DNA of 64,000 nt. Source: Cytophagales bacterium. Its GTDB lineage: Bacteria; Bacteroidota; Bacteroidia; Cytophagales; UBA9547. The notes under the pieces are model-generated. The model was not told the origin of the DNA. It searched no databases and worked only from the letters and a program-made list of their open reading frames with translations. Location: positions 3,666 to 67,665 of the forward strand of contig JAAFIH010000027.1 of assembly GCA_013297755.1 (NCBI GenBank), read 5' to 3'. This document shows, in pieces, positions 18,742-60,600 of the stretch (within the stretch, counting starts at the first letter, position 1; each line of letters begins with the position of its first letter). The position numbers and the translations under genes were made by a program.

Positions 18742-19707
18742 ATGAGCAAAATTATACTATTTGTATGTTTATTGATTTTTAATATAATTTCTTACAGCCA
18801 AAAATTGATGAATCACAAAGCACCTTTGCACCATGATTCGCACATACGCTCTTCTCATTCTATCAAATTTCCTTGGGGCATATTTTTTGGCGTAGGTTCA
18901 AATTCTTACTATGGCGACCTCAGTGGTTTTCGACATTCGTTCAAAGCCATCAATTATCAATTTACTGCTGGTGTGTCTTACAGGTTCAATAAAAGATTTG
19001 CTACTCAAGTATCTTACAGAATTTTGAGGCTTAGGGCTTCTGACGAAGAATCATCTATAGAATCGATAGGACGCAAAAAAAGAAACCTTAGTTTTGCATC
19101 TATGGTACACGAGTTTGGTATCTGTGGTACTTTCGATTTGTTTAATTTTGATTTCAGACGAACCCCAGACTACTCTCATGCTACTGGATTTTTTCCATAT
19201 CTCTTGGCTGGTGTTGGGGTTATCAATTATAATCCTACGGCAGAGTTTGAAGGACAAAATTATGATTTGAGATCATTAAAAACCAGCCGTGAAAAACAAC
19301 AAGGCCTCACTTACAGCAGTTGGGCTGGATATTATACTTATGGCGTAGGTGGCAAAATAAAAGTAAGTTCGTTTATTTGTTTTGGTATGGAACTAACCTA
19401 CACCAATACCCTTACAGATTACCTTGACGATGTAGGTTCTGGCACTCACTACCCTACAAACAACAATGATCCAAATTTTGTAAACACCATAGAAGGGCAT
19501 CTAGCAGATAGAAGCCTAGAATCTCCACTCAACACTAGCCGCAGAGAAGATGGTGGGCTGCGCTCCTTTGACATCAAAGGTGGCCGAAACGATGGATATT
19601 TTGCAATAACTCTTAAAATAGACTATGCTTTCAATAGCTGGGGCAATATATTTAATGAAAAAGCAAGCCATTTCAGAAGAAGAGATACACCGTTCCATAA
19701 ACACTAA
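18742..19707 (+). CDS. Putative outer-membrane beta-barrel protein (porin-family-like)
   Basis: It has a signal peptide and alternating aromatic/hydrophilic beta-strand-like segments (GVSYRFNKRFATQVSYRI, GMELTYTNTLTDY). No enzymatic motif was recognised. Confidence 0.45.
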   Translation: MSKIILFVCLLIFNIISYSQKLMNHKAPLHHDSHIRSSHSIKFPWGIFFGVGSNSYYGDLSGFRHSFKAINYQFTAGVSYRFNKRFATQVSYRILRLRASDEESSIESIGRKKRNLSFASMVHEFGICGTFDLFNFDFRRTPDYSHATGFFPYLLAGVGVINYNPTAEFEGQNYDLRSLKTSREKQQGLTYSSWAGYYTYGVGGKIKVSSFICFGMELTYTNTLTDYLDDVGSGTHYPTNNNDPNFVNTIEGHLADRSLESPLNTSRREDGGLRSFDIKGGRNDGYFAITLKIDYAFNSWGNIFNEKASHFRRRDTPFHKH

Positions 19708-19771
19708 AAGCCCCCTAGCCCCCGAAGGGGGAATAAAAGTAGGTTGGTAGTTGCCTTCGGCATGGTAGAAT

Positions 19772-19819
19772 GGTAGGTTGGTAGGTTGGTAGATTGGTAG
19801 ATTGATAGATTGGTAGAAA
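19772..19819. repeat. Octamer microsatellite (GGTAGRTT) x6
   Basis: The run reads ggtaggtt ggtaggtt ggtagatt ggtagatt gatagatt ggtagaaa directly. Confidence 0.9.
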
Positions 19820-19847
19820 TAAACTGGCGTAAGCCTAAAAATAAAAA

Positions 19848-19897
19848 AATCCGCTTTTAAGCCCCTCCCCTTGGGGAGGGGTTGGGGTGGGGCTTTT
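19848..19897 (+). repeat. GC-rich hairpin 'word' with canonical G-quadruplex motif and GGGGCTTTT end
   Basis: In ...tccgcttttaagCCCCTCCCCttGGGGAGGGGttGGGGtGGGGctttt, the C-rich arm 19862-19870 pairs with 19873-19881. Four GGGG tracts occupy 19873-19892. Confidence 0.85.
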
Positions 19898-20150
19898 AAA
19901 AAATTGCTATAAACGCAATTTTCCCCTTCGGGTTCTACTCATGGAGTAGAATTTGTTGGGGTGGGGCTTTTAAAAAATTGCTATAAACGCAATTTTCCCC
20001 TTCGGGTTCTACGCATGGAGTAGAATTTGTTGGGGTGGGGCTTTTAAAAATTGCTATAAACGCAATTTTCCCCTTCGGGTTCTACGCATGGAGTAGAATT
20101 TGTTTGGGGTGGGGCTTTTAAAAAATTGCTATAAACGCAATTTTCCCTTT
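19898..20150 (+). repeat. Tandem array of a ~74-bp structured unit (3 full copies plus a divergent 4th)
   Basis: The unit is aaaaaattgctataaacgcaattttccccttcgggttctacKcatggagtagaatttgttggggtggggctttt. Copies start at 19898, 19972, 20046 and 20120. Confidence 0.9.
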
Positions 20151-20169
20151 CGGGGGTTTGGGGGCAAAA

Positions 20170-20310
20170 AAAAATAAAAAAAAATCCTATTTCCCCCTCC
20201 CTATGGGATGAGGGGGTAGGGAGTGGGGCTTTTAGAATGGTAGGTTCTAGTTGGGCAGGGGCTTTTAAATCCGCTTTTAAACCCCTCGGGGTTAGGTTGG
20301 GGTTTTTGAA
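20170..20310 (+). repeat. Further GC-rich hairpin words (CCCCCTCCC...GAGGGGG type) ending in GGGGCTTTT
   Basis: The region reads aatcctatttccccctccctatgggatgagggggtagggagtggggctttt, followed by ...gggcaggggctttt and cccctcggggttaggttggggttttt. Confidence 0.8.
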
Positions 20311-27011: not shown

Positions 27012-27228
27012 TTAGATTTAAAAGTAGTATAAATCGTTATAATAAAATATAACTTTAAAAATAATATTTTAAGAAATAATAGCTTCAAAAGTTCCTATCT
27101 TTTGGATTCTTTGGCTTAATAACAGAAATTGGGGTGGGGCTTAAAAAACAGGCTTTATTTTAATAAAATCTTAAATGTGCCTGCATTTCTTTTTAATAAG
27201 ATTTTTAAATTTTCAAATAAATTTATTG

Positions 27229-30299: not shown

Positions 30300-30322
30300 G
30301 GATTTTTTTATTAATGTTTAAA

Positions 30323-30353
30323 AATTGTCCCCTGGTATTACCAGGGGACAATT
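30323..30353 (-). terminator. Intrinsic terminator (13-bp perfect stem) for 30358..30819
   Basis: aattgtcccctgg-tatta-ccaggggacaatt. On the minus strand it is followed by TTTT. It sits 5 nt downstream of the stop at 30358. Confidence 0.75.
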
Positions 30354-30357
30354 TGAT

Positions 30358-41754: not shown

Positions 41755-43856
41755 TGCCTTTAAAAATTGCCTTTTTTCTTTTATTTTTTAATATATTGGC
41801 CTTTACTCAGTCATTTTATGCTGAAAAAAAAACCAGTAAGTCAAATATAGAAACAACCATAAGCAATTTAGGCCTTATTGGTAATTCGTTTCGTGGAAGC
41901 TATCAATCTCAAAGTTGGGGATCGTTGGAGTTTCCTGCCAAATCTAACATAGAACATGCTTTTTTGGGTGGCCTTTGGATAGGTGCTATCATCAATGGAG
42001 GCGTTACGGCCGTAAGTACTGGGGCTGTTGGTTCGGCCAATGGCTATAGTACTGGTGCATCTGGGTACGAATTTACGGCTCCATTGGGTTCTACTTTGCA
42101 AACAAAATCACGACTACAAGACGACCCTTTTTATGACCCCAAAGCGGTTTCTCATCAAGATTTTATAGGCAATTTTACTGATAGCAATGTATTTATACCA
42201 GGCTCACCACAACGAATTGTTGGCCACGAAAACCCATTGAAAGTGTCTGTAAAATTCGAATCTTATAATTGGAATAGCTCATCTGCCAACTTTTTTATTC
42301 CTCTCAAATTTGTAATTAAAAATACAGGAAAAAATGTATTGTCAGATGTATGTGTGGGTTATTGGGCCGATTTTGTCATTCGCAACGTATCGCAATATCC
42401 ACCAGGTGGCACACCTTTTTTCTCTTCTGGTCGCAATGGATTTATTGATTCTTTGGCAATGGCTTATGAATGGGATGGCGAAACCTCAGTGCCAAATGCT
42501 CAGAGTTATGCTGGATTGATGTATTTGGGTGCTGTCGATAAAAATGGCGTTGTTCGTTATCCAAATACTATCACAAGTCCAGAGATTAAAACAAATTATA
42601 ACACTTGGACTTTTAATGGAGCAGACAATAATTTTGGAGTTCCTATTTCAGATTTTGATAAATATGCCCGATTAAAAGAAGGACAAAATCAAAGATCTAC
42701 TTGGGCAAATACCCAAAATTTGATACGCCAAAACGGCAATCGCTCTAATCTCATTTCTGCTGGGCCTTTTGCCACACTCAATCCAGGTGATGAAATGGAA
42801 ATTATGTTTGCAGTCGTTTGTGGCTCTACGATAGAAGATGGAGCTAAACATCCATCAGAAAATACGCCTTTGCAAATATCTCAATTTATAAAAAATGCTA
42901 ACGATGCACGCACATCCTATGCAGGTGAAGACAAAAACCGAAATGGTATCCTCGATTTGGGTGAAGACATCAATCTAAATGGAAAAATCGATCGCTTGAT
43001 TTTCCCAGAACCACCTGCTACTCCCAAAACAAAATTTATAGTTGGCGATGGCAAAATAGATATGTATTGGACCAATAACTCTGTTATTTCTAGAGACCCT
43101 GTAACCCAAAAATTAGATTTTGAAGGATTTAGAATTTATCGCACCCAACTTGCTTATGATATGCAAAAAAGCGTTGACATAGACAAAAGCCTCAAATTGA
43201 TACGATCTTACGACAAAACTGATAATATTTTCTTTTTAAATAACGGCTTTTCTGAAATAGAGTTAAAAGAACCCATCACTTTTGAGGGCGACCCCAATGT
43301 GTATTATTATAAATATACTTTCAATAACATGGCCAGTGGTTGGCAACATGCCATAGCACTTACAGCCTTTGATTCAGGCGATACACTACTGAATGTGGCA
43401 CCTCAAGAATCATCAAAATTAGAAAACATATTTCGTATTTTTCCAGGCAAACCAGCCAATGGAAGTATCCAATCAAACGAGCCTTATGTTTATCCAAACC
43501 CATACTATGGCATAGCCAGTTGGGAGGGCTCAAGCAATTTTGAAGAATCTAAAAAATTAATTTTTGCAAATTTACCCAAACGATGCACCATAAAAATATA
43601 TACCCTAGCAGGCGATTTGATAGACACCATCAACCATGACGAAAATTACAATGGCTCAGATATGGCCTCAAAAAGCCCTCAAGGTTGGTTTACCATTTAT
43701 TCTGATACCGAAAAAAATATATTTTCAGGTGGCGAACACGCTTGGTCGCTGATGTCGGCCAACTCTCAAATCATTGCACGTGGATTTTATATTTTCAATG
43801 TAGAAGACACCAAAACTGGTGAAACCTTTGTAGGGAAATTTACAGTAATCAAATAA
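41754..43856 (+). CDS. Secreted 700-aa protein with Ca-binding-like D/N loop, FN3-like and C-terminal FlgD-Ig-like domain
   Basis: The start overlaps the EEP stop (TAATG). It has a signal peptide. The D/N loop is DKNRNGILDLGEDINLNGKID and the FN3-like segment is KIDMYWTNN...FEGFRIYRT. The C-terminus is CTIKIYTLAGDLI...GFYIFNVEDTKTGETFVGKFTVIK. Confidence 0.6.
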   Translation: MPLKIAFFLLFFNILAFTQSFYAEKKTSKSNIETTISNLGLIGNSFRGSYQSQSWGSLEFPAKSNIEHAFLGGLWIGAIINGGVTAVSTGAVGSANGYSTGASGYEFTAPLGSTLQTKSRLQDDPFYDPKAVSHQDFIGNFTDSNVFIPGSPQRIVGHENPLKVSVKFESYNWNSSSANFFIPLKFVIKNTGKNVLSDVCVGYWADFVIRNVSQYPPGGTPFFSSGRNGFIDSLAMAYEWDGETSVPNAQSYAGLMYLGAVDKNGVVRYPNTITSPEIKTNYNTWTFNGADNNFGVPISDFDKYARLKEGQNQRSTWANTQNLIRQNGNRSNLISAGPFATLNPGDEMEIMFAVVCGSTIEDGAKHPSENTPLQISQFIKNANDARTSYAGEDKNRNGILDLGEDINLNGKIDRLIFPEPPATPKTKFIVGDGKIDMYWTNNSVISRDPVTQKLDFEGFRIYRTQLAYDMQKSVDIDKSLKLIRSYDKTDNIFFLNNGFSEIELKEPITFEGDPNVYYYKYTFNNMASGWQHAIALTAFDSGDTLLNVAPQESSKLENIFRIFPGKPANGSIQSNEPYVYPNPYYGIASWEGSSNFEESKKLIFANLPKRCTIKIYTLAGDLIDTINHDENYNGSDMASKSPQGWFTIYSDTEKNIFSGGEHAWSLMSANSQIIARGFYIFNVEDTKTGETFVGKFTVIK

Positions 43857-44157
43857 TTGAGAATTGAGAATTGAGAATTGAGAATAATATTAATTAATTA
43901 TAATGAACAAACAAAAAACGGGAGTAAGCCTAAAAAATTAAAAAAATCCGCTTTCAAGTCCCCTTCGGGGATTTAGGGGCTTTAAAAATTAAAAAAATCC
44001 ACTCTAGCCCCTCCCTTTTATGGGGTTCTACGCATGGAGTAGAATTTGTTGGGGTGGGGGCAAATATAGTCCTTATAATTCCTCCTTCGGGGGCTAGTAG
44101 GCTTTTATGAATTGAACCATTAATAATTAACCATTAACCATTAACCATTAAAAACAG
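43857..44157 (+). repeat. Mosaic intergenic repeat array (heptamers + GC hairpin words)
   Basis: (TTGAGAA)x4 starts directly at the stop codon. It is followed by gtaagcctaaaaaattaaaaaaatccgctttcaagtccccttcggggatttaggggcttt and then cccctcccttttatggggttctacgcatggagtagaatttgttggggtggggg. cctccttcggggg comes next, and (AACCATT)x4-5 ends 9 nt before ATG 44158. Confidence 0.9.
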
Positions 44158-46644: not shown

Positions 46645-47040
46645 TACATTAAAAAAATCCATTTCAAGCCCCTCCCTTTTATGGGGAGTGGTTGGGGTGG
46701 GGTTTTTATTATTCTTTAAAATAAAAAATGTGTAAGCATAAAAAATTACAAAAAGTCCATTTTAAGTCCCTCCCCTTGGGGTTCTGCGAAATCGTAGCAG
46801 AATTTGTTAGGGTGGGGTTATAAATCAGCTCAAGCCCCTTGTCCTTTGAGAAGGGTTTGGGTGAGGCTTTTGAAATAATACAACATATCTTTTCTTTAAA
46901 AGAAAGGATATGTTTAATCTAAATTTATAATTTTTAAAATCTTATGAATCATTTAATCATAAAAATCAAAGTTTAGACAATTTAAAAACTCCGCTTTCAA
47001 GTCCCCTTCGGGGGTTTGGGGGCTTTTAAACACACAAACA
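46645..47040 (+). repeat. Mosaic intergenic repeat array (GC hairpin words)
   Basis: At least four words are present. The first two are cccctcccttttatggggagtggttggggtggggttttt and tccctccccttggggttctgcgaaatcgtagcagaatttgttagggtggggtt. The last two are gccccttgtcctttgagaagggtttgggtgaggctttt and tccccttcgggggtttgggggctttt. Confidence 0.9.
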
Positions 47041-47041
47041 A

Positions 47042-51454: not shown

Positions 51455-52474
51455 ATGTTTAAGAATTTTATTTCAATATTATTTATTTTTTCTTACTCCA
51501 CTAAGGCCCAACTATTCCCTAATTTGGGTGGTCAGCGTACAGGTATATCTACACTTACATTTCTTAAAGAAGATGTCAGTCCACGCTCTATTGCTATGGG
51601 CGGTGCCACCACTACCCTCAAAGGCGATGCTTATGCTGCACACTGGAATCCCGCAGGGCTTACCGAAATTCCCAATCACTCCTTTGCAGCATCTGTACGT
51701 GTGTTTCCGGCTGCTATTACACATGCCTTTTTTGCAGCCAATTTCAAATTGCGTGAAACCGATGTATTGGCTTTTTCTATCAATAATTTTAATCTTGCCA
51801 ATCAAGAAGTTCGTACCGAATTTCAACCTCAGGGCACAGGTCAAAAATTTATTGCCAATAATATGGCCTTTACTGCCACTTACGCCAAAGCATTAACCTA
51901 TAAATTTAGTATGGGGCTATCCTTACGCTACATCAACGAGCGTATGGATATGTACACTGCCCACGCAGTAGCTGCCGATTTGGGTTTTATCTACAAAACA
52001 GATTTTAAAGATTTACGTTTTGGTATATTCTTACAAAATTTTGGTCCAAACTCCAAAGCCACTGGAGCGTATGTGCCACCTAGTTTTGCTAACAAAACTT
52101 TCGCCCCAGATGCTTATTCATTACCAAATGTTTTCAAATTAGGAGTAGCCATAGTACCTTTCAAAAAAAATAACCATTCAATAACCACTGCTGTCGAACT
52201 ACATTCGCCAAGCGACAATGCAGCCAATATTCGACTTGGGGTTGAATATAGCTATATGGAAATGTTTTTTGCCCGCACAGGCTATATGATTAATTTCAAC
52301 ACCTATATAATACCAACTTTTGGAGCAGGAGTCAAAGCCAATACCAAAGCAGGCACATTTTATATAACCTATTCGTTTGCAACATCACGTACATTTATGG
52401 GCACAAATCATGGCATAGGACTAGAATACATCATCAATAAACCAAAACAAGAAACCCCATTGAAAGATATTTAG
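51455..52474 (+). CDS. PorV/PorQ-family outer-membrane beta-barrel protein
   Basis: The N-terminal region GISTLTFLKEDVSPRSIAMGGATTTLKGDAYAAHWNPAGL matches the PorV/PorQ family signature as I recall it. At 339 aa it is barrel-sized. Confidence 0.65.
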   Translation: MFKNFISILFIFSYSTKAQLFPNLGGQRTGISTLTFLKEDVSPRSIAMGGATTTLKGDAYAAHWNPAGLTEIPNHSFAASVRVFPAAITHAFFAANFKLRETDVLAFSINNFNLANQEVRTEFQPQGTGQKFIANNMAFTATYAKALTYKFSMGLSLRYINERMDMYTAHAVAADLGFIYKTDFKDLRFGIFLQNFGPNSKATGAYVPPSFANKTFAPDAYSLPNVFKLGVAIVPFKKNNHSITTAVELHSPSDNAANIRLGVEYSYMEMFFARTGYMINFNTYIIPTFGAGVKANTKAGTFYITYSFATSRTFMGTNHGIGLEYIINKPKQETPLKDI

Positions 52475-53265
52475 TTGATTATTGATTATTGATTATTGAT
52501 TATTGATTATTGATTATTGATTATTAATTAAAATTCGTGCATTCGTGGCTTTATAAATGCGTTAGCTAATCCCCCTTCGGGGGTTTGGGGGCTTTTATTC
52601 AGAGGGCTTGGGGGCTTTTAAAAAAAACCTATTTCCCCCCCTCTTTTTTGGAGAGGTGGGGCAGGGGGGTGAGGCTTAAATATTGCGTTAGCATTAAAAA
52701 TAAAAAAAAATCCTATTTCCCCCTCCATAAGGAATGAGGGGGCAGTGGGTGGGGCTTTTTTAAGAATTGAGAATTGAGAATTGAGAATTGAGAATTGATT
52801 ATTGATTAAAATTCGTGCTAAGTGGCGATAAAATTGCTAATATCGCAATTTCCCCTTCGGGGGTTTGGGGGCTTTAAAAAATTAAAAAAAATCCTATTTC
52901 CCCCCTCCCTATGGGATGAGGGGGCAGGGGGTGGGGCTTTTTTAAGAATTAAGAATTGAGAATTGAGAATTGATTATTGATTAAAATTCGTGCATTCGTG
53001 GCTTTATAAATGCGTTAGCTAAGCCCCCTTCGGGGGTTTGGGGGCTTTTAAAAAAATCCTATTTCCTCCTCCATAAGGAATGAGGGGGCAGTGGGTGGGG
53101 CTTTTTTAAGAATTGAGAATTGAGAATTGAGAATTGAGAATTGATTATTGATTAAAATTCGTGCTAAGTGGCGATAAAATTGCTAATATCGCAATTTCCC
53201 CTTCAGGGGTTTGGGGGCTTTTATTCAGAGGGTTTGGGGGCTTTTAAAAACTAAAAAAATATAAA
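52475..53265 (+). repeat. ~790-bp higher-order mosaic repeat array
   Basis: (TTGATTA)x7 sits at the stop codon. Modules then alternate between two variants: X1 (aaattcgtgcattcgtggctttataaatgcgttagctaa) and X2 (aaattcgtgctaagtggcgataaaattgctaatatcgcaattt). Each is followed by ccccttcgggggtttgggggctttt, then tcctatttccccctcc...gagggggcagtgggtggggctttttt, then (GAGAATT)x3-5 GATTATTGATT. Confidence 0.9.
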
Positions 53266-53266
53266 T

Positions 53267-54493
53267 ATGCTTAAAAATTATAAATTAAATATTATTATCA
53301 ATACAATTTTGATAATAATTACAACCAGTTGCAACCCTTTTGGTACAAAAACCGATCTTAGTTTTATTCCTCAGCCTAGCAATCAATTTAGGCCAATATC
53401 TTATGTGCCTATTTTGCCTGCTGTGCAAGGCCAGTTTGTAGAACTTTCAGATATTACGATGGGTTACGATGAGCTGATTTATGTTGTAGACAAAGGCACA
53501 CAAGAAGTCATCGTTTATAATACTGCAATGGTAAAATTGGCTTCCAAATTCGTAAAAGGTGCCACAAAAGTGGTTCAAGACCGAAAGCTAAATCTATTGG
53601 TTCTTGGTACCTCCGACACCACCATTGGCAACGTAAATTATACCAACCTTGCCACTGTGTATCGTTTTAAGCTAGATAACACTACTTATGGATTATCAAA
53701 TGCTGTTTTAAAAAAGAAAATTGTACACCCTTTTTATTTTCCTGCCAATTCAGTCATTACAAATACAGTCAAGTTTACTGATATTTGCATAGTTGGCGAC
53801 AATATCTTGGGCGATAACTTTTATTACTTGGCTCGTACAGGAGCCAACAACAATCCACTCAATCCTGGTGGGCCAGACGATGCCATACTTTTATTCAACG
53901 AAAACGACAATTTTCAATATTTTGTCCAAATATTAGGAAATGAAGGCGTAAAAACCGATTTTTTCAAATCTCCAACTGCTTTAGTAAGTGCAGTACAGCC
54001 CCCACAATCTGATAGAGCCATTCGTAGCATGAATTTTATGTATGCCACTGCCACTCCCTTTGAGCCAGAAAGTAGACGCAAAGTCTTACCAATATTGTAC
54101 GAAGCCTCCCCTGAGGGCATTACATACACACAATCCATCAACCTTGTAATAGACGATACAACCAAGGCAAATGGTTTTTTGCTTACACTCGACAAATTTA
54201 AGGCCATTTCTGATATGGCAGCCTCTGGTGATGGCACCAATTTACTTTTTGTGGCCGATAATATCAAAGATTCTATCTTTGTATTTGGCCTCAATACTGG
54301 TCTCGAGGGCATTACCCCACCTGCTGGCTCTAGGGGACGAAAAAACATCAAAGTATCGTTTGGCGGCACTGGCAAAGAATTTACTCAATTCGATAATCCT
54401 GTAGCTTTGGTTTATGCCAAAGAAATATTATATGTAGCCGATGCCGGAAACAACCGTATTGTGCGTTTTAAACTTACTTCTGATTTTAGATAA
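53267..54493 (+). CDS. NHL-repeat lipoprotein
   Basis: The lipobox is IIITTSCNPF. The C-terminal NHL-like repeat is FDNPVALVYAKEILYVADAGNNRIVRFKL, with an earlier YDELIYVVDKGTQEVIVYN. Confidence 0.6.
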   Translation: MLKNYKLNIIINTILIIITTSCNPFGTKTDLSFIPQPSNQFRPISYVPILPAVQGQFVELSDITMGYDELIYVVDKGTQEVIVYNTAMVKLASKFVKGATKVVQDRKLNLLVLGTSDTTIGNVNYTNLATVYRFKLDNTTYGLSNAVLKKKIVHPFYFPANSVITNTVKFTDICIVGDNILGDNFYYLARTGANNNPLNPGGPDDAILLFNENDNFQYFVQILGNEGVKTDFFKSPTALVSAVQPPQSDRAIRSMNFMYATATPFEPESRRKVLPILYEASPEGITYTQSINLVIDDTTKANGFLLTLDKFKAISDMAASGDGTNLLFVADNIKDSIFVFGLNTGLEGITPPAGSRGRKNIKVSFGGTGKEFTQFDNPVALVYAKEILYVADAGNNRIVRFKLTSDFR

Positions 54494-57600: not shown

Positions 57601-60600
57601 ACTTTGCAAGGAAACTTTCCTACCATTATTTCTGGTAATATCATCAATATAACAGTTCCTTTTGGCACAAATCTTTTAAATCTATCAGCAACAGGTGTTA
57701 ATTCTCCTTTTTCTACCGTAAATCCTAGTTTTGCTTCTATGCTTAATTATAGCAATTCTCAATCATTTACAGTTACGGCCCAAAATTTGTCTACCAATAT
57801 ATATAGTGTATCAATTACAACTATTCCTCCCTCTTCGGCCAATAAAATTACTGGTTTCACTATTGCAGGTGTTTCAGCCATGATTAATGGCAATATTATT
57901 AATGTAACTTTACCCAATGGTACAATGGTCAATAGCATATCAGCCAAGGGCATTAATGATGCTCTATCTACCGTTAGTCCAAGTTTTGCTACACTACTCG
58001 ATTATAACTTTCCACAAACTTTCACTGTTACAGCCCAAAATATGGCTACCAATGTGTATACAGTTCAAGTTGCTGTATCCTCATCTTTATCTGCAGCAAA
58101 TTCTATTACTGGCTTCACTTTGCAAGGCAATTATAATGGAGTTATTTCTGGTAATATAATTAATGTTACAGTTCCATTTGGTACAAACCTTGCATCTTTA
58201 TCAGCTACTGGCACAAACTCTTTGGTTTCAACCGTTAGTCCAAGTTTTGCCACTTTGCTTAATTATACCACTACACAAACATTTACTGTTACTGCCCAAA
58301 ATATGGCTACCAATGTGTATACAATTCAAGTGGCCGTTTTGTCTGCATCATCAGCCAATTCCATTTCTGGTTTTACATTAGCAGGTTCGCAAGCTATCAT
58401 TTCTGGAAACATTATCAATGTTACAGTTCCATTTGGTACAAACCTTACAGCTTTATCAGCCACTGGCACAAACTCTTTGGTTTCAACCGTAAGTCCAAGT
58501 TTTGCTACTTTGCTAAATTATAACACTGCACAAACATTTACAGTTACTGCCCAAAATATGGCTACCAATGTTTTTACAGTTCAAGTGGCAATAGCACCAG
58601 GTTCGGCTTCCAATTCCATTACAGGTTTTACATTAGCAGGTTCGCAAGCTATCATTTCTGGAAACATAATCAATGTTACAGTTCCTTTTGGTACAAACCT
58701 TACCTCTTTGTCAGCCACTGGTGTCAATTCTTTAGCTTCTACCGTCAATCCAAGTTTTGCTACTTTGATAAATTATAACACTGCACAAACATTTACAGTT
58801 ACTGCCCAAAATATGGCTACCAATGTTTTTACAGTTCAAGTGGCAATAGCACCAAGCATAACTGGAGGTTCATTGAATCAAACAGTTGCTTTTAGTGAAA
58901 ATTTTGGAACCGTAACTGGTACAGGTTCTATAGCTTCTTTCAATGGATGGCAAAATCAAAGTGTTATATTTAGTTCTATATCAGGTGTTAATCCTGTTTC
59001 AGTAATAGGAGTAGGAAATATTACTACCTCAGTAGCTCCTGATAAAAGAAGTACATTTCCTTCCTCAGGATATTCTTTTGCTTCTGCCATATCAAATATT
59101 TATTTTGGGCCTGTAACTTCTGATGCTAGAACTTTTTTTATGTCAAATATTAACACAAGCACAATTTTAGGAAATGTCGGTTTTAGATTTGGATACACTA
59201 GAAATTCTGCTACAATAGATGATTTAAGAATAGCTTACAGTACTGATAATGTAAATTATACAGAAGTAACATATACTTCAACTTCTGTTACTGGTTGGCA
59301 GGTAATAACTATTCCAAACAATACTTTACCAAAATCAAGCACCTTATCTTTAATGTTTTTTAAAACTTCAACTGCAAGTATTCAACATAGAATTGATGAT
59401 GTTCAAATTTTAGATGTTCCAATAGCTAATATTTCCTCAGCCAATTCCATTACTGGTTTCCAATTGGCAGGTATTCCAGCTGTTATTTCTGGTAATATTA
59501 TCAATGTTACAGTTCCTTTTGGCACAAATCTTACATCTTTATCAGCCACAGGTTCTATTTCTCCTTTAGCTAACGTAAACCCAAGTTTTGCTACATTATT
59601 AGATTACAGCACCGCTAAAACATTTACTGTTACAGCCCAAAACTTAGCTACCAATGTATATACCGTAAATGCAGTTGTGTCTGCTACCTTGTCAGATGCC
59701 AATTCAATCACTGGCTTTACTTTACAAGGAGGGTATCAGGCTACTATCAATGGAAACATGATTAATCTTACAGTTCCATTTGGCACAAATCTTAGCTCAT
59801 TATCTGCCACAGGTACAAACTCGTTGGTATCAACCGTAAACCCAAGTTTTGCCACTTTGCTTAATTATAGTACTGCACAAACATTTACTGTTACAGCCCA
59901 AAATTTAGCCACCAATGTGTATACTGTAAACGTAACCATAGCTGCAAGTGTGTCAGGTGTGGTAGTACCTTACTTGTCGTTATCTACGCTTAGAGCTTCG
60001 CTCAACGCCAGTGGAATAACCACCATTACAGGTCAATTTACAACTTCTGGACAAATATATGGTATCAATGCCTTTACTACTGGCCAACAATTTAGTTTAA
60101 TAGATGCTACAGGAGCTATAACTTTAAGAACATCCCTTACAACTCCAGCCATGAAAGAAGGCGATATAGTTACCATTACTGGCGGCTTTGGAGGTACAGG
60201 AAATTCTTACGGAAATTTCAATGGACTTCAACAAGTAACCAACATTACCAGTATTACTATTGGCTCAAGTAACAATCCAAGAAAATCTCCAACTTTAGTT
60301 TCAGAACTTACCGAATCTTTAGAATCTGATTTTGTCTCAGTTGTTGCCAACATCAATCGTGCCTCATGGATAGATGCTCCAATTACACCAACATTAACTT
60401 TATCTGGGTTTACAGTTATAATGACTGTAAATGGTGTAGTTACGCAACTAAGAATTTCAAACATGAATACCGAAATATATGGTAAAACATTTGAAGAATT
60501 GTTTGATACCAATACAGATGCCATGAACGTAACCATTTCTGGTTTAGTCGGTCAGTTTCAACGATCTTCGGTTTCAAATGTTACTGTTGGTGGTGTTGTC

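Follow-up and report, generated by a model that had tools for sequence, protein, structure and literature searches.

How does a spacer of 792 nt, made almost wholly of repeats, come to lie between two genes of the same cluster? The question is raised by positions 52475-53266 of a 64,000-nt stretch of the Cytophagales contig JAAFIH010000027.1 (the whole stretch is called the window below), where the spacer runs from the stop codon of a PorV/PorQ-like gene to the ATG of a gene of 408 amino acids (aa). An initial annotation of this DNA had described a higher-order mosaic of hairpin words and heptamers filling the spacer, and had read the hairpins with their G-rich tails as about ten consecutive terminator-like hairpins. 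The mosaic is confirmed here by Tandem Repeats Finder, by a repeat search and by a regular-expression (regex) map. The terminator reading is replaced: the tail mirrors the purine arm of the preceding hairpin, which is the architecture of an intrastrand triplex. From the sequence comparisons described below, we consider it very probable that the units are class II purine-motif intrastrand triplex motifs of the BoxC/PIT/TM_ECO type and that the array is a derived insertion; for actual folding into a triplex the evidence is comparative, from mirror covariation.

The array and its two neighbouring genes are composed as follows.

51455-52474, + strand: PorV/PorQ-like outer-membrane protein gene, 339 aa (Pfam PF19572, E = 1.3e-07), with a C-terminus alignable with relatives and a TAG stop that directly adjoins the array.
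52475-52530, + strand: heptamer microsatellite, (TTGATTA)x7 plus TTAATTA (Tandem Repeats Finder: period 7, 8.0 copies, 97% matches; regex map).
52531-52569, + strand: linker X1, copy a, rich in A and T and with a weak hairpin inside it (39/39 nt identical to 52984-53022).
52571-52596, + strand: unit A1, CCCCC-ttc-GGGGG-ttt-GGGGG-C-TTTT, a perfect class II motif with 5-nt arms (motif search and regex map).
52597-52619, + strand: unit A'1, the tail-only fragment ATTCAGAGGGCTTGGGGGCTTTT without pyrimidine arm, repeated at 53223-53245 (regex map).
52620-52681, + strand: unit B1, with A-run, CCTATTT leader, CCCCCCCTCT / AGAGGTGGGG hairpin and GGGGGGTGAGG tail, a degenerate motif (predicted RNA fold -21.4 kcal/mol).
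52696-52761, + strand: unit B2, with A-run, TCCTATTT leader, CCCCCTC (52719-52725) / GAGGGGG (52736-52742), tail GTGGGTG-GGGC and T6; one position of the third arm departs from the mirror (predicted RNA fold -21.5 kcal/mol).
52762-52808, + strand: heptamer block, AAGAATT plus (GAGAATT)x4 running into (TTGATTA)x2 (Tandem Repeats Finder, regex map).
52809-52851, + strand: linker X2, copy a, containing a GCGATA...TATCGC hairpin (43/43 nt identical to 53155-53197).
52852-52875, + strand: unit A2, CCCC-ttcg-GGGG-g-ttt-g-GGGG-C-TTT (regex map).
52876-52943, + strand: unit B3, CCCCCTC (52901-52907) / GAGGGGG (52918-52924) / ca / GGGGGTG (52927-52933) plus GGGC plus T6, a perfect class II motif of 7 nt that includes a T*A-T triad (predicted RNA fold -25.5 kcal/mol).
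52944-52983, + strand: heptamer block, AAGAATT, AAGAATT, two GAGAATT, then two TTGATTA (Tandem Repeats Finder, regex map).
52984-53022, + strand: linker X1, copy b (regex map).
53024-53049, + strand: unit A3, a perfect 5-nt class II motif preceded by AAG (motif search, regex map).
53050-53107, + strand: unit B4, B2-like, with the pyrimidine arm mutated to CCTCCTC, within the 99%-identical 172-nt block.
53108-53154, + strand: heptamer block, AAGAATT plus (GAGAATT)x4 plus (TTGATTA)x2 (Tandem Repeats Finder, regex map).
53155-53197, + strand: linker X2, copy b (regex map).
53198-53245, + strand: unit A4 (loop G>A: CCCCTTCAGGGG...), then the tail-only unit A'2 (53223-53245) (regex map).
53246-53266, + strand: unique A-rich stretch before the start codon (sequence inspection).
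53267-54493, + strand: downstream gene, 408 aa, with a weak NHL repeat match (Pfam; relatives).

Several details of the earlier description hold and others change. The seven perfect TTGATTA copies are there, and the extra TTAATTA brings the tract to 8.0 copies; repeats were said to continue to 1 nt before the ATG, and the mosaic does fill the spacer, but the last 21 nt are unique. Both copies of X1 and both copies of X2 are identical over the lengths listed, and the G>A change reported after one X2 lies in the 53198 copy of the core CCCC(C)TTCGGGGGTTTGGGGGCTTT(T), which occurs four times (52571, 52852, 53024, 53198). The four B units make up the second type, CCCCCTC...GAGGGGG with a G-rich tail and a T-run. 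Instead of about ten terminator-like hairpins, the array holds eight hairpins of the pyrimidine/purine type, next to two fragments that consist of a tail only. The units are without exception on the + strand, in direct tandem orientation, and the base composition is skewed (G 198 vs C 104). The regex map resolves four super-modules, in each of which heptamers come first and are followed by a linker, unit A, (unit A') and unit B. Since X1 is found at 52531 and 52984 and X2 at 52809 and 53155, the array consists of two copies of a block made of an X1 module and an X2 module, the first X1 module being longer by about 107 nt (A'1, B1 and an X1 fragment). The repeat search recovers a 172-nt block (52704-52875) repeated at 53050-53221 with 99% identity and a 112-nt block (52486-52597) repeated at 52939-53050 with 88% identity, and Tandem Repeats Finder reports (AGAATTG) runs at 52763, 52945 and 53109. 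A CRISPR array was rejected, as it had been in the initial annotation: there are no unique spacers, and everything between units recurs. Comparison with Rfam gives for CRISPR a sub-threshold CRISPR-DR21 match only, on the opposite strand and inside the upstream gene.

As to the units themselves, each starts with a pyrimidine arm, continues with a purine arm complementary to it by Watson-Crick pairing and ends with a G-rich third arm mirroring the purine arm; this order is found in all array units. The purine (reverse-Hoogsteen) motif is built from C-G*G, T-A*A and T-A*T triads, and in the terms of Holder et al. (2015; PMC4666352) the block order is 'class II'. A search for perfect three-arm motifs yields 8 in the window compared to 0.1 in shuffles (30 dinucleotide shuffles). 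In 873 kb comprising the window and Bacteroidota loci, 217 class II motifs (pyrimidine-purine-mirror) were found against a single class I motif (reverse order), with 0 in shuffles. Covariation of the three arms within the 26-mer (X-Y-Z) was dropped as evidence because only two haplotypes exist and the linker is variable in many variants; a mirror/direct test on asymmetric stems was used in its place. Of 188 asymmetric hairpins, 43 have a third arm that mirrors the purine arm perfectly, and 11 have one that repeats it as a perfect direct copy (binomial p = 1.4e-05). About half of the non-redundant motifs (107/208) are independent of the searched word and represent more than 25 different stems, with arms of 6-9 nt in 51 of the 107. 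Opposite a purine-arm A, the third arm carries A in 68 cases and T in 35, both of which the purine motif permits (PMC4666352); the count is descriptive only, the search having admitted A or T alone.

The mirror relation is seen in individual motifs, for example:

CCTCCCC-ttc-GGGGAGG-tta-GGAGGGG
CTCCCCC-ttc-GGGGGAG-tcg-GAGGGGG
TCCTCCCC-ttc-GGGGAGGA-ttt-AGGTGGGG
CCCCTCTCC-atc-GGAGAGGGG-ttg-GGGGTGAGG (a Bacteroidota copy with near-TM_ECO arms)
CCCCCTC...GAGGGGG-ca-GGGGGTG (within the array)

In the array, the third arm is perfect in A1, A3 and B3, has one mismatch in B2 and B4 and is degenerate in B1. The published ITxF search (PMC4666352) sets a minimum of 6 nt for the arms and allows loops of 1-6 nt; B3 (7 nt) and a unit at 19862 in another array of the window (9 nt) have arms of that length, the A units have arms of 4-5 nt, and the first loop of the B units is 10 nt. 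Pairing of the tail with the upstream leader into a longer RNA stem was also considered and rejected, the family-wide mean longest helix being 4.34 compared to 4.33 in permutations.

The state of this junction in relatives indicates that the array is derived. The closest relative is the Cytophagales metagenome-assembled genome (MAG) REAG01 (L115), whose flanking proteins are 79% and 76% identical to those of the window, and two further genomes with about 55% aa identity were compared (L119, L121). All three carry the same five-gene cluster, which encodes a protein sorted by the type IX secretion system (T9SS), a 487-aa protein, a TonB-dependent-receptor-like protein, the PorV-like protein and the NHL-repeat protein. 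In 3/3 relatives the PorV-like and NHL-repeat genes overlap, by 14-17 nt, and the array is therefore a lineage-specific insertion. In the window, the C-terminus (...LKDI*) and the N-terminus (MLKNYK...) are both intact and alignable with the relatives, from which we infer that the overlap segment was duplicated when the genes parted. Likewise, the L115 spacer that matches 46645-47041 of the window is 97 nt long and contains no units, so that at least two junctions of the cluster have been invaded in the lineage of the window. Position 8300-8385 of L115, 3' of its NHL gene, holds a different tandem duplication of about 40 nt, cacaccatcgaaag(t/a)gggttggtatcattaaaa, which is unrelated to the triplex motifs.

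Both edges of the array, including its unique junctions with the flanking genes, were recovered in independent assemblies of several sequencing runs. More specifically, Logan contigs carrying proteins of both flanks come from Sequence Read Archive (SRA) runs SRR9948920 and SRR9948931-34; these short-read contigs end inside the first microsatellite at 52503 (3 places shown, 6 contigs read) and resume at 53214 (3 contigs, with 9 samples listed for the contig of one place). Logan contigs also end at 19800, in the second large array of the window. Breaks of this kind are just what multi-copy repeats cause. Given that contigs end at both edges, the internal number of modules is that of the submitted contig alone. 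A scan of metagenomes for the left flank of the array gave 0 matches.

The initial annotation had called for a census of the repeat words, whose confinement to the window would have argued for a local duplication. That refutation does not hold, as the words are dispersed: they are found at four further sites of the window, and the core word is phylum-wide. A scan with one genome per species places this 21-nt core word, CCCCTTCGGGGRTTTRGGGGC, in at least 109 stretches; some 105 of these carry a Bacteroidota label (Flavobacteriales, Chitinophagales, Cytophagales, Bacteroidales, Sphingobacteriales), and the isolates that bear it include Flavobacterium soli, Bizionia, Aequorivita, Chryseobacterium and Kaistella. 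The conserved core spans 26 nt, AAG[CT]-CCCC-TTCG-GGGG-R-TTT-R-GGGGC-T, with flanks that are unrelated from locus to locus. Inverted doublets, in which a reverse copy is followed after 12-60 nt by a forward copy, are common among the loci. The 21-nt word has 0 matches in 2.9 million viral contigs. Rfam at gathering threshold (4227 covariance models) gives 0 matches in the whole 64-kb window, and at E <= 10 the array shows chance-level sub-threshold matches only. Exact words and sub-words of the unit have no match in the searchable literature, and RepRanger, which for Bacteroidota gives genome-level counts only, contains no matching repeat. As a whole, the family extends over the phylum Bacteroidota, where it has apparently not been described so far.

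Two sets of loci deserve mention for their density and context. An 8-kb contig of a Paludibacter MAG (L009) has 12 units, an extreme density; they lie at nearly all gene boundaries and in same-strand pairs in which a 4-nt-arm unit precedes a 5-nt-arm unit. In six loci from Chryseobacterium, Kaistella and Bergeyella (L020, L034, L041, L048, L075, L098), the word lies in an identical context at the start of a small open reading frame (ORF; MKMKHPIINALKSPLRGFGG...), with at least 50 nt upstream and 40 nt downstream the same, which suggests a recently shared mobile region.

Copies elsewhere are placed in a polar manner relative to genes. Among word-containing copies, the third-arm end lies within 25 nt of an ORF boundary in 39/55 and the pyrimidine end in 3/55, the third-arm side being closer in 48 v 7 (p = 1e-8). 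Copies independent of the word behave similarly (31/50 and 6/50; closer in 38 v 12; p = 3e-4). The boundary in question is the point where a co-oriented gene starts or where a gene on the opposite strand stops. At loci L004-L112 the third-arm (3') end is at a median of about 10 nt from it and the 5' end faces a spacer of about 100 nt, as in ...GGGGC-tttaaaat-ATG 5' of ychF. These counts use crude ORF calls; the pattern is also visible by eye. Unit orientation relative to the direction of the neighbouring gene shows no bias across the phylum (24/21 and 20/21). The polar placement could result from target choice, from selection, or from the unit being one terminus of a longer element.

About one third of the copies lie deep inside long ORFs, in either orientation. 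In a Segetibacter MAG (L106:1148-3442, - strand), a type III-like DNA methylase of 764 aa contains three in-frame units encoding LSPQTPEGGL, LSPFGGAGGGF and SSPSGRSGGAL. All three are missing from a 94%-identical homologue (L125:1501-3747) and from most of 12 other aligned homologues; at the second site a comparable insert is seen in a homologue from Bacteroidales (P0153), and homologue lengths range from 683 to 764 aa. In the DNA-level alignment each unit takes the place of a short homologue stretch, with net gains of 12, 15 and 21 nt. The alignment shows a recent gain that preserves the frame and does not resemble an insertion with target-site duplication. The 21-nt word is also found in frame in leuS of eight Flavobacteriales (L007, L033, L051, L083, L088, L096, L097, L102), where it encodes KPPSG(V/I)WG just 5' of the conserved LELNTMPGWAGSSWY, with flanks that differ at many synonymous sites. 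These leuS loci were selected by the word itself, so its nucleotide conservation there says nothing on constraint; in an alignment to the Protein Data Bank (PDB) the region of the copies is variable, and nothing further emerged.

Among described repeats, the units are closest to TM_ECO/BoxC/PIT of E. coli, e.g. CCCTCTCCC-ttga-GGGAGAGGG-tta-GGGTGAGGG (Holder et al., 2015, Nucleic Acids Research 43:10126; PMC4666352). TM_ECO elements form a triplex in vitro, are intergenic, often occur as inverted pairs, are linked to local genome instability and were reported in 262 proteobacterial genomes; the text of that study describes no Bacteroidetes elements of such kind, and its supplement gives total motif counts per genome only (PMC4666352). 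In common with TM_ECO, the units here have three blocks in the same order on one strand, a third arm with T or A facing an A of the purine arm, and a second loop about 3 nt long (TTA, TTT). Also shared are a G/C-rich composition that contrasts with an ordinary genome, a mostly intergenic position, frequent arrangement in inverted pairs, large differences in copy number between close relatives and a tie to local rearrangement. The units differ from TM_ECO in host, which is here a member of the Bacteroidota with its nearest protein matches in Cytophagales MAGs, and in sequence: the TM_ECO consensus CCCTCNCCC-N3-6-GGGNGAGGG-N3-GGGNGAGGG, with 9-nt arms, is not matched by the window units, which are mostly C5/G5/G5 in an AAG...C-T frame, CCCCCTC/GAGGGGG/GGGGGTG, or CCCCTCCCC/GGGGAGGGG/GGGGTGGGG. 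Moreover, Bacteroidota units are placed strictly polar with the third arm beside the gene boundary, and they also occur in frame inside ORFs, whereas TM_ECO is described as always intergenic; the tandem arrays interleaved with linkers and heptamers seen here have no counterpart in TM_ECO, which is not so clustered.

Two further comparisons concern the in-frame copies and the heptamers. Rickettsia palindromic elements (RPEs) are about 100-150 bp long and not known outside Rickettsia. Like them and like in-frame repetitive extragenic palindromic (REP) sequences, the units are frame-preserving palindromic repeats inside coding genes that vary between close homologues (PMC6006769, PMC3733652), but they measure 26-36 nt, encode Pro/Gly/Ser-rich loops of about 10 residues and replace a short host stretch rather than being simply inserted. 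Bacterial repeats of period 7 are known from Calothrix (STRR), Xanthomonas (GGGAATC) and Nostoc (GGGGA(C/T)T) (PMC4692102). The heptamers of the window resemble these in being intergenic only, variable in length and asymmetric near one ORF whatever its orientation (PMC4692102); in contrast, TTGATTA, GAGAATT and AACCATT are AT-rich, do not form G-quadruplexes (G4) and flank G/C-rich units instead of occurring by themselves.

At the transcript level, an intrinsic terminator was taken as a G/C-rich stem with a loop of 3-8 nt and a U-tract 0-2 nt past the stem; the consensus scan finds 2 such sites, compared to 1.6 expected from shuffles, and the T-run stands after the G-rich tail and not after the core stem. 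The RNA fold of the whole array is unexceptional (z = -1.7). The Bacteroidetes -7 box TAnnTTTG is absent from the array and from the last 21 nt; a promoter within the array was rejected, since the sigma-70-type matches are all heptamer sequence and follow a consensus that is not valid for Bacteroidota. Given the lack of a -7 box and the ancestral coupling of the downstream genes, read-through is the likeliest route of expression, and the downstream genes probably still depend on it. In view of their predicted folds, B units may still terminate transcription in part or protect 3' ends. RNA is reported not to adopt triplexes of the purine motif (PMC4666352), so that any role in the transcript would rest on the hairpin alone. 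Together with the lack of transcription-orientation bias and the conserved mirror arm, this argues for a selected property at the level of DNA, the likely setting being single-stranded DNA in replication, repair or transposition, in which case effects on mRNA would be secondary. GC skew is uninformative on the direction of replication.

If the array were instead a functional intercistronic RNA element, acting as stacked terminators, attenuators or 3'-end-protecting hairpins and thus REP-like in function, one would expect it to set how strongly the outer-membrane genes upstream are expressed relative to the secreted-protein genes downstream; we consider such an element unlikely, and this role for it equally so. 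It would account for the presence of all units on the coding strand of co-directional genes, for the 15/16 GGGGCTTTT words of the window that lie on the + strand (15 on +, 1 on -), and for B units folding as an A-run, a stem of about 20 bp and U6. C(UUCG)G-type loops are, in addition, very stable in RNA. As in an intrinsic terminator, there is a G/C-rich stem-loop on the coding strand with T-runs nearby, and B units have A-run/T-run flanks. However, a G-rich arm intervenes between core stem and T-run, terminator sites are scarcely in excess of chance, and units occur phylum-wide in either orientation where an RNA signal would be biased. Termination does not need a mirror third arm, and the sequence is conserved well past what a terminator requires. 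The relatives have overlapping genes with no spacer, no -7 box is available for transcription restart, and a conventional palindromic hairpin of the same genome (30319-30357) looks different. PIT elements of E. coli are cited as having neither terminator nor promoter activity (PMC4666352). A related proposal, that the units are a REP/REPIN family mobilized by a REP-associated tyrosine transposase (RAYT; Y1 HUH transposase) of the Bacteroidetes-specific subclass 2.6 or of subclass 2.4, would make the array the equivalent of a cluster of bacterial interspersed mosaic elements (BIMEs), a resemblance that the initial annotation had pointed out; we judge it quite unlikely. The units are indeed short, multi-copy and palindromic, share a conserved foot on the 5' side (A-A at -4/-3 followed by G or T), often form inverted doublets with 12-60-nt spacers, and build composite intergenic mosaics with specific linkers between co-transcribed genes, and the roles proposed for REPs (mRNA stabilization, attenuation, genome plasticity) are plausible for them too. 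One RAYT subclass is specific to Bacteroidetes, and the 'atypical secondary structures' that flank it are also found elsewhere in the genome; frame-keeping REP insertions are known for subclass 2.4 (PMC6006769). However, the GT[AG]G/CGTC foot is lacking, the 5' flank consensus being A-A-(A/T/C)-(T/G), or AAG[CT] for the core word, and despite the X1/X2 linkers the array units are all direct, where REPs alternate. The REP table of PMC6006769, including subclass 2.6, has 0 matches to TTCGGGG or CCCCGAA. REP families are, moreover, normally lineage-specific, whereas the 21-mer is identical across orders and the unit, with its third mirror arm, is conserved across a phylum and not within one genus. 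No RAYT-like ORF with HUH and Y motifs lies within the 64-kb window, and the sole one in 940 kb, in L106, is flanked by its own GTAG-TGGTTGGTG repeats. That ORF (L106:150-665, - strand, 171 aa) has the RAYT-like motifs NHIH...WQ...YIHNNP and no Pfam match, and the GTAG-TGGTTGGTG-type palindromes on both its sides belong to another family than the triplex motifs on the same contig.

The G-rich strand might also act through a G-quadruplex, built from purine arm plus tail or from neighbouring units and affecting replication or transcription, which we regard as very unlikely. The unit at 19862 (G4-A-G4-TT-G4-T-G4) is indeed predicted to form one: with G4 energies RNAfold gives -47.7 vs -27.8 kcal/mol, and this is the only unit that prefers the quadruplex. 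B3 has four G-runs, the array is rich in G, and G-rich heptamers placed in a polar manner near ORFs are known in Xanthomonas and Nostoc (PMC4692102). Nevertheless, the commonest unit has two G-runs only, with which no intramolecular G4 is possible, all other folded stretches, including all nine from the array, stay hairpins even with G4 energies, and A-bearing variants (GGGGA-ttt-AGGGG, GGGGAGG-tta-GGAGGGG) preserve mirror symmetry and not G-run number. Finally, part of the array might be an artefact, the repeat having been collapsed or over-expanded when the contig was assembled from a metagenome, as all short-read assemblies of the source organism break at its edges and the order of 172-nt blocks with 99% identity is beyond the reach of 150-nt reads. 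Both edges are reproduced independently, however, and the same unit types occur at four other sites of the window and in isolate genomes of many genera; copy number could be altered in this way, the existence of the array could not, and we hold an artefact to be extremely improbable.

A number of observations weigh against reading the spacer as an inserted and amplified cluster of triplex motifs. Arms are only 5 nt long in most units, under the 6-nt floor for such motifs, a length that might not suffice for a stable triplex; in the B units the first loop is 10 nt long, and 2/4 have an imperfect third arm. E. coli elements form a triplex in vitro, but dimethyl sulfate (DMS) footprinting in vivo did not detect it (PMC4666352). 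RNAfold extends the B units with G-U pairs to an A-run, a long stem and U6 of about -20 to -25 kcal/mol, which has the look of an intrinsic terminator, and nearly every unit in the source genome ends in GGGGC-TTTT(TT). The replacement of short stretches fits no known transposition scheme, no transposase or other mobilizing gene was found, and the interior of the array is without independent assembly support.

With these points taken into account, we favour as probable the explanation that the spacer is a lineage-specific, tandemly amplified triplex-motif repeat cluster, identity and mechanism being judged together; that the mechanism is one of selfish or unstable DNA we propose only tentatively. 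Under this proposal, the family would be a non-autonomous element and would spread by an enzyme or a repair route, with folded single-stranded DNA as the substrate. A unit or small composite would have landed in the gene overlap, with the overlap segment duplicated and both genes kept intact, and the locus would then have grown through duplication of the two-module block of about 450 bp (X1 module plus X2 module), while the flanking heptamers added length by slippage. Polymerase stalling at folded units would be a likely driver of this growth. On the RNA level the units would be by-products, whose hairpins and U-runs may attenuate read-through or stabilize the upstream mRNA, and they would abolish the ancestral translational coupling. 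As for function, our best guess is a selfish, instability-prone DNA-level element with side effects on mRNA. A bolder reading, in which the units are a phylum-wide, structure-selected class of single-stranded-DNA elements with propagation machinery of its own, is prompted by the short-patch replacement, the in-frame tolerance and the third-strand end set against start or stop codons, which are unlike the mechanisms described for REPs, miniature inverted-repeat transposable elements (MITEs) or IS200-type elements; we think it rather unlikely. If it were true, the mirror-arm covariation would be the first comparative evidence of in vivo selection on intrastrand triplex folding.

What appeared to be an array of terminators is thereby re-identified as a cluster of intrastrand-triplex motifs, and a little-studied class of repeats is extended from Proteobacteria and Cyanobacteria to the whole phylum Bacteroidota. 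The E. coli elements are almost invariant, and it is the arm variation in Bacteroidota that reveals mirror covariation and so provides a comparative triplex test. The array itself is an example of repeat-driven plasticity: repeats of this family invaded a translationally coupled overlap, grew to 790 bp inside an operon and, elsewhere, entered coding sequences in frame, which bears on genome plasticity, operon evolution and the insertion of protein loops. There is also a practical side, since the repeats break short-read assemblies at gene boundaries, so that Bacteroidota MAGs would be systematically fragmented, and start and stop codons mis-called, there.

The vocabulary of the array is found in the window at 19706-20300, 43855-44151, 46650-47035 and 27129, all intergenic and on the + strand with the exception of one inverted copy that overlaps the stop codon at 19705-19707. 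The larger features are these.

19706-20300, + strand: second array of the family; its inverted unit 19706-19731 overlaps the stop of a DUF6089 gene.
Within 19706-20300, 3' of the inverted unit: octamer microsatellite (TGGTAGAT/TGGTAGGT)n, including the small GTAG-footed hairpin GGTAGTTGCCTTCGGCATGGTAG.
From 19862, + strand: perfect 9-nt triplex motif CCCCTCCCC/GGGGAGGGG/GGGGTGGGG, also a textbook G4 motif.
Within 19706-20300, + strand: 74-nt unit in 3.7 copies (Tandem Repeats Finder), then further units.
43855-44151, + strand: third array; (AATTGAG)x4.4 starts at the stop codon, the motif TCCCC/GGGGA/AGGGG lies at 43959, there are also split units and degenerate ones, and (AACCATT)x5 precedes the next start codon.
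46650-47035, + strand: fourth array with four units, the last of which (47003-47023) lies 18 nt 5' of the next ORF.

The 74-nt unit carries an extra hairpin, TTCTAC-gcatgga-GTAGAA, within its second loop, and its leader is similar to the 3' half of X2 (comparison by eye, in the array at 19.9 kb). The GAGAATT heptamer also begins at the stop codon of the gene ending at 43856, and the arrays at 43855-44151 and 46650-47035 occupy other junctions of the same gene cluster. At 27125-27145 there is a solitary intergenic tail-only fragment, TTGGGGTGGGGCTTAAAAAA, without pyrimidine or purine arm. The palindrome at 30319-30357, AAAAATTGTCCCCTGG-tatt-ACCAGGGGACAATTT, is perfect and conventional, has A/T flanks and lies between two minus-strand genes, and serves as an example of an ordinary terminator-like hairpin in the source genome. 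A 255-nt tandem repeat at 57970-58845 (3.4 copies, 85% matches) is located inside a 2089-aa T9SS-sorted protein and corresponds to repeated DUF5018-type domains, an ordinary coding repeat.

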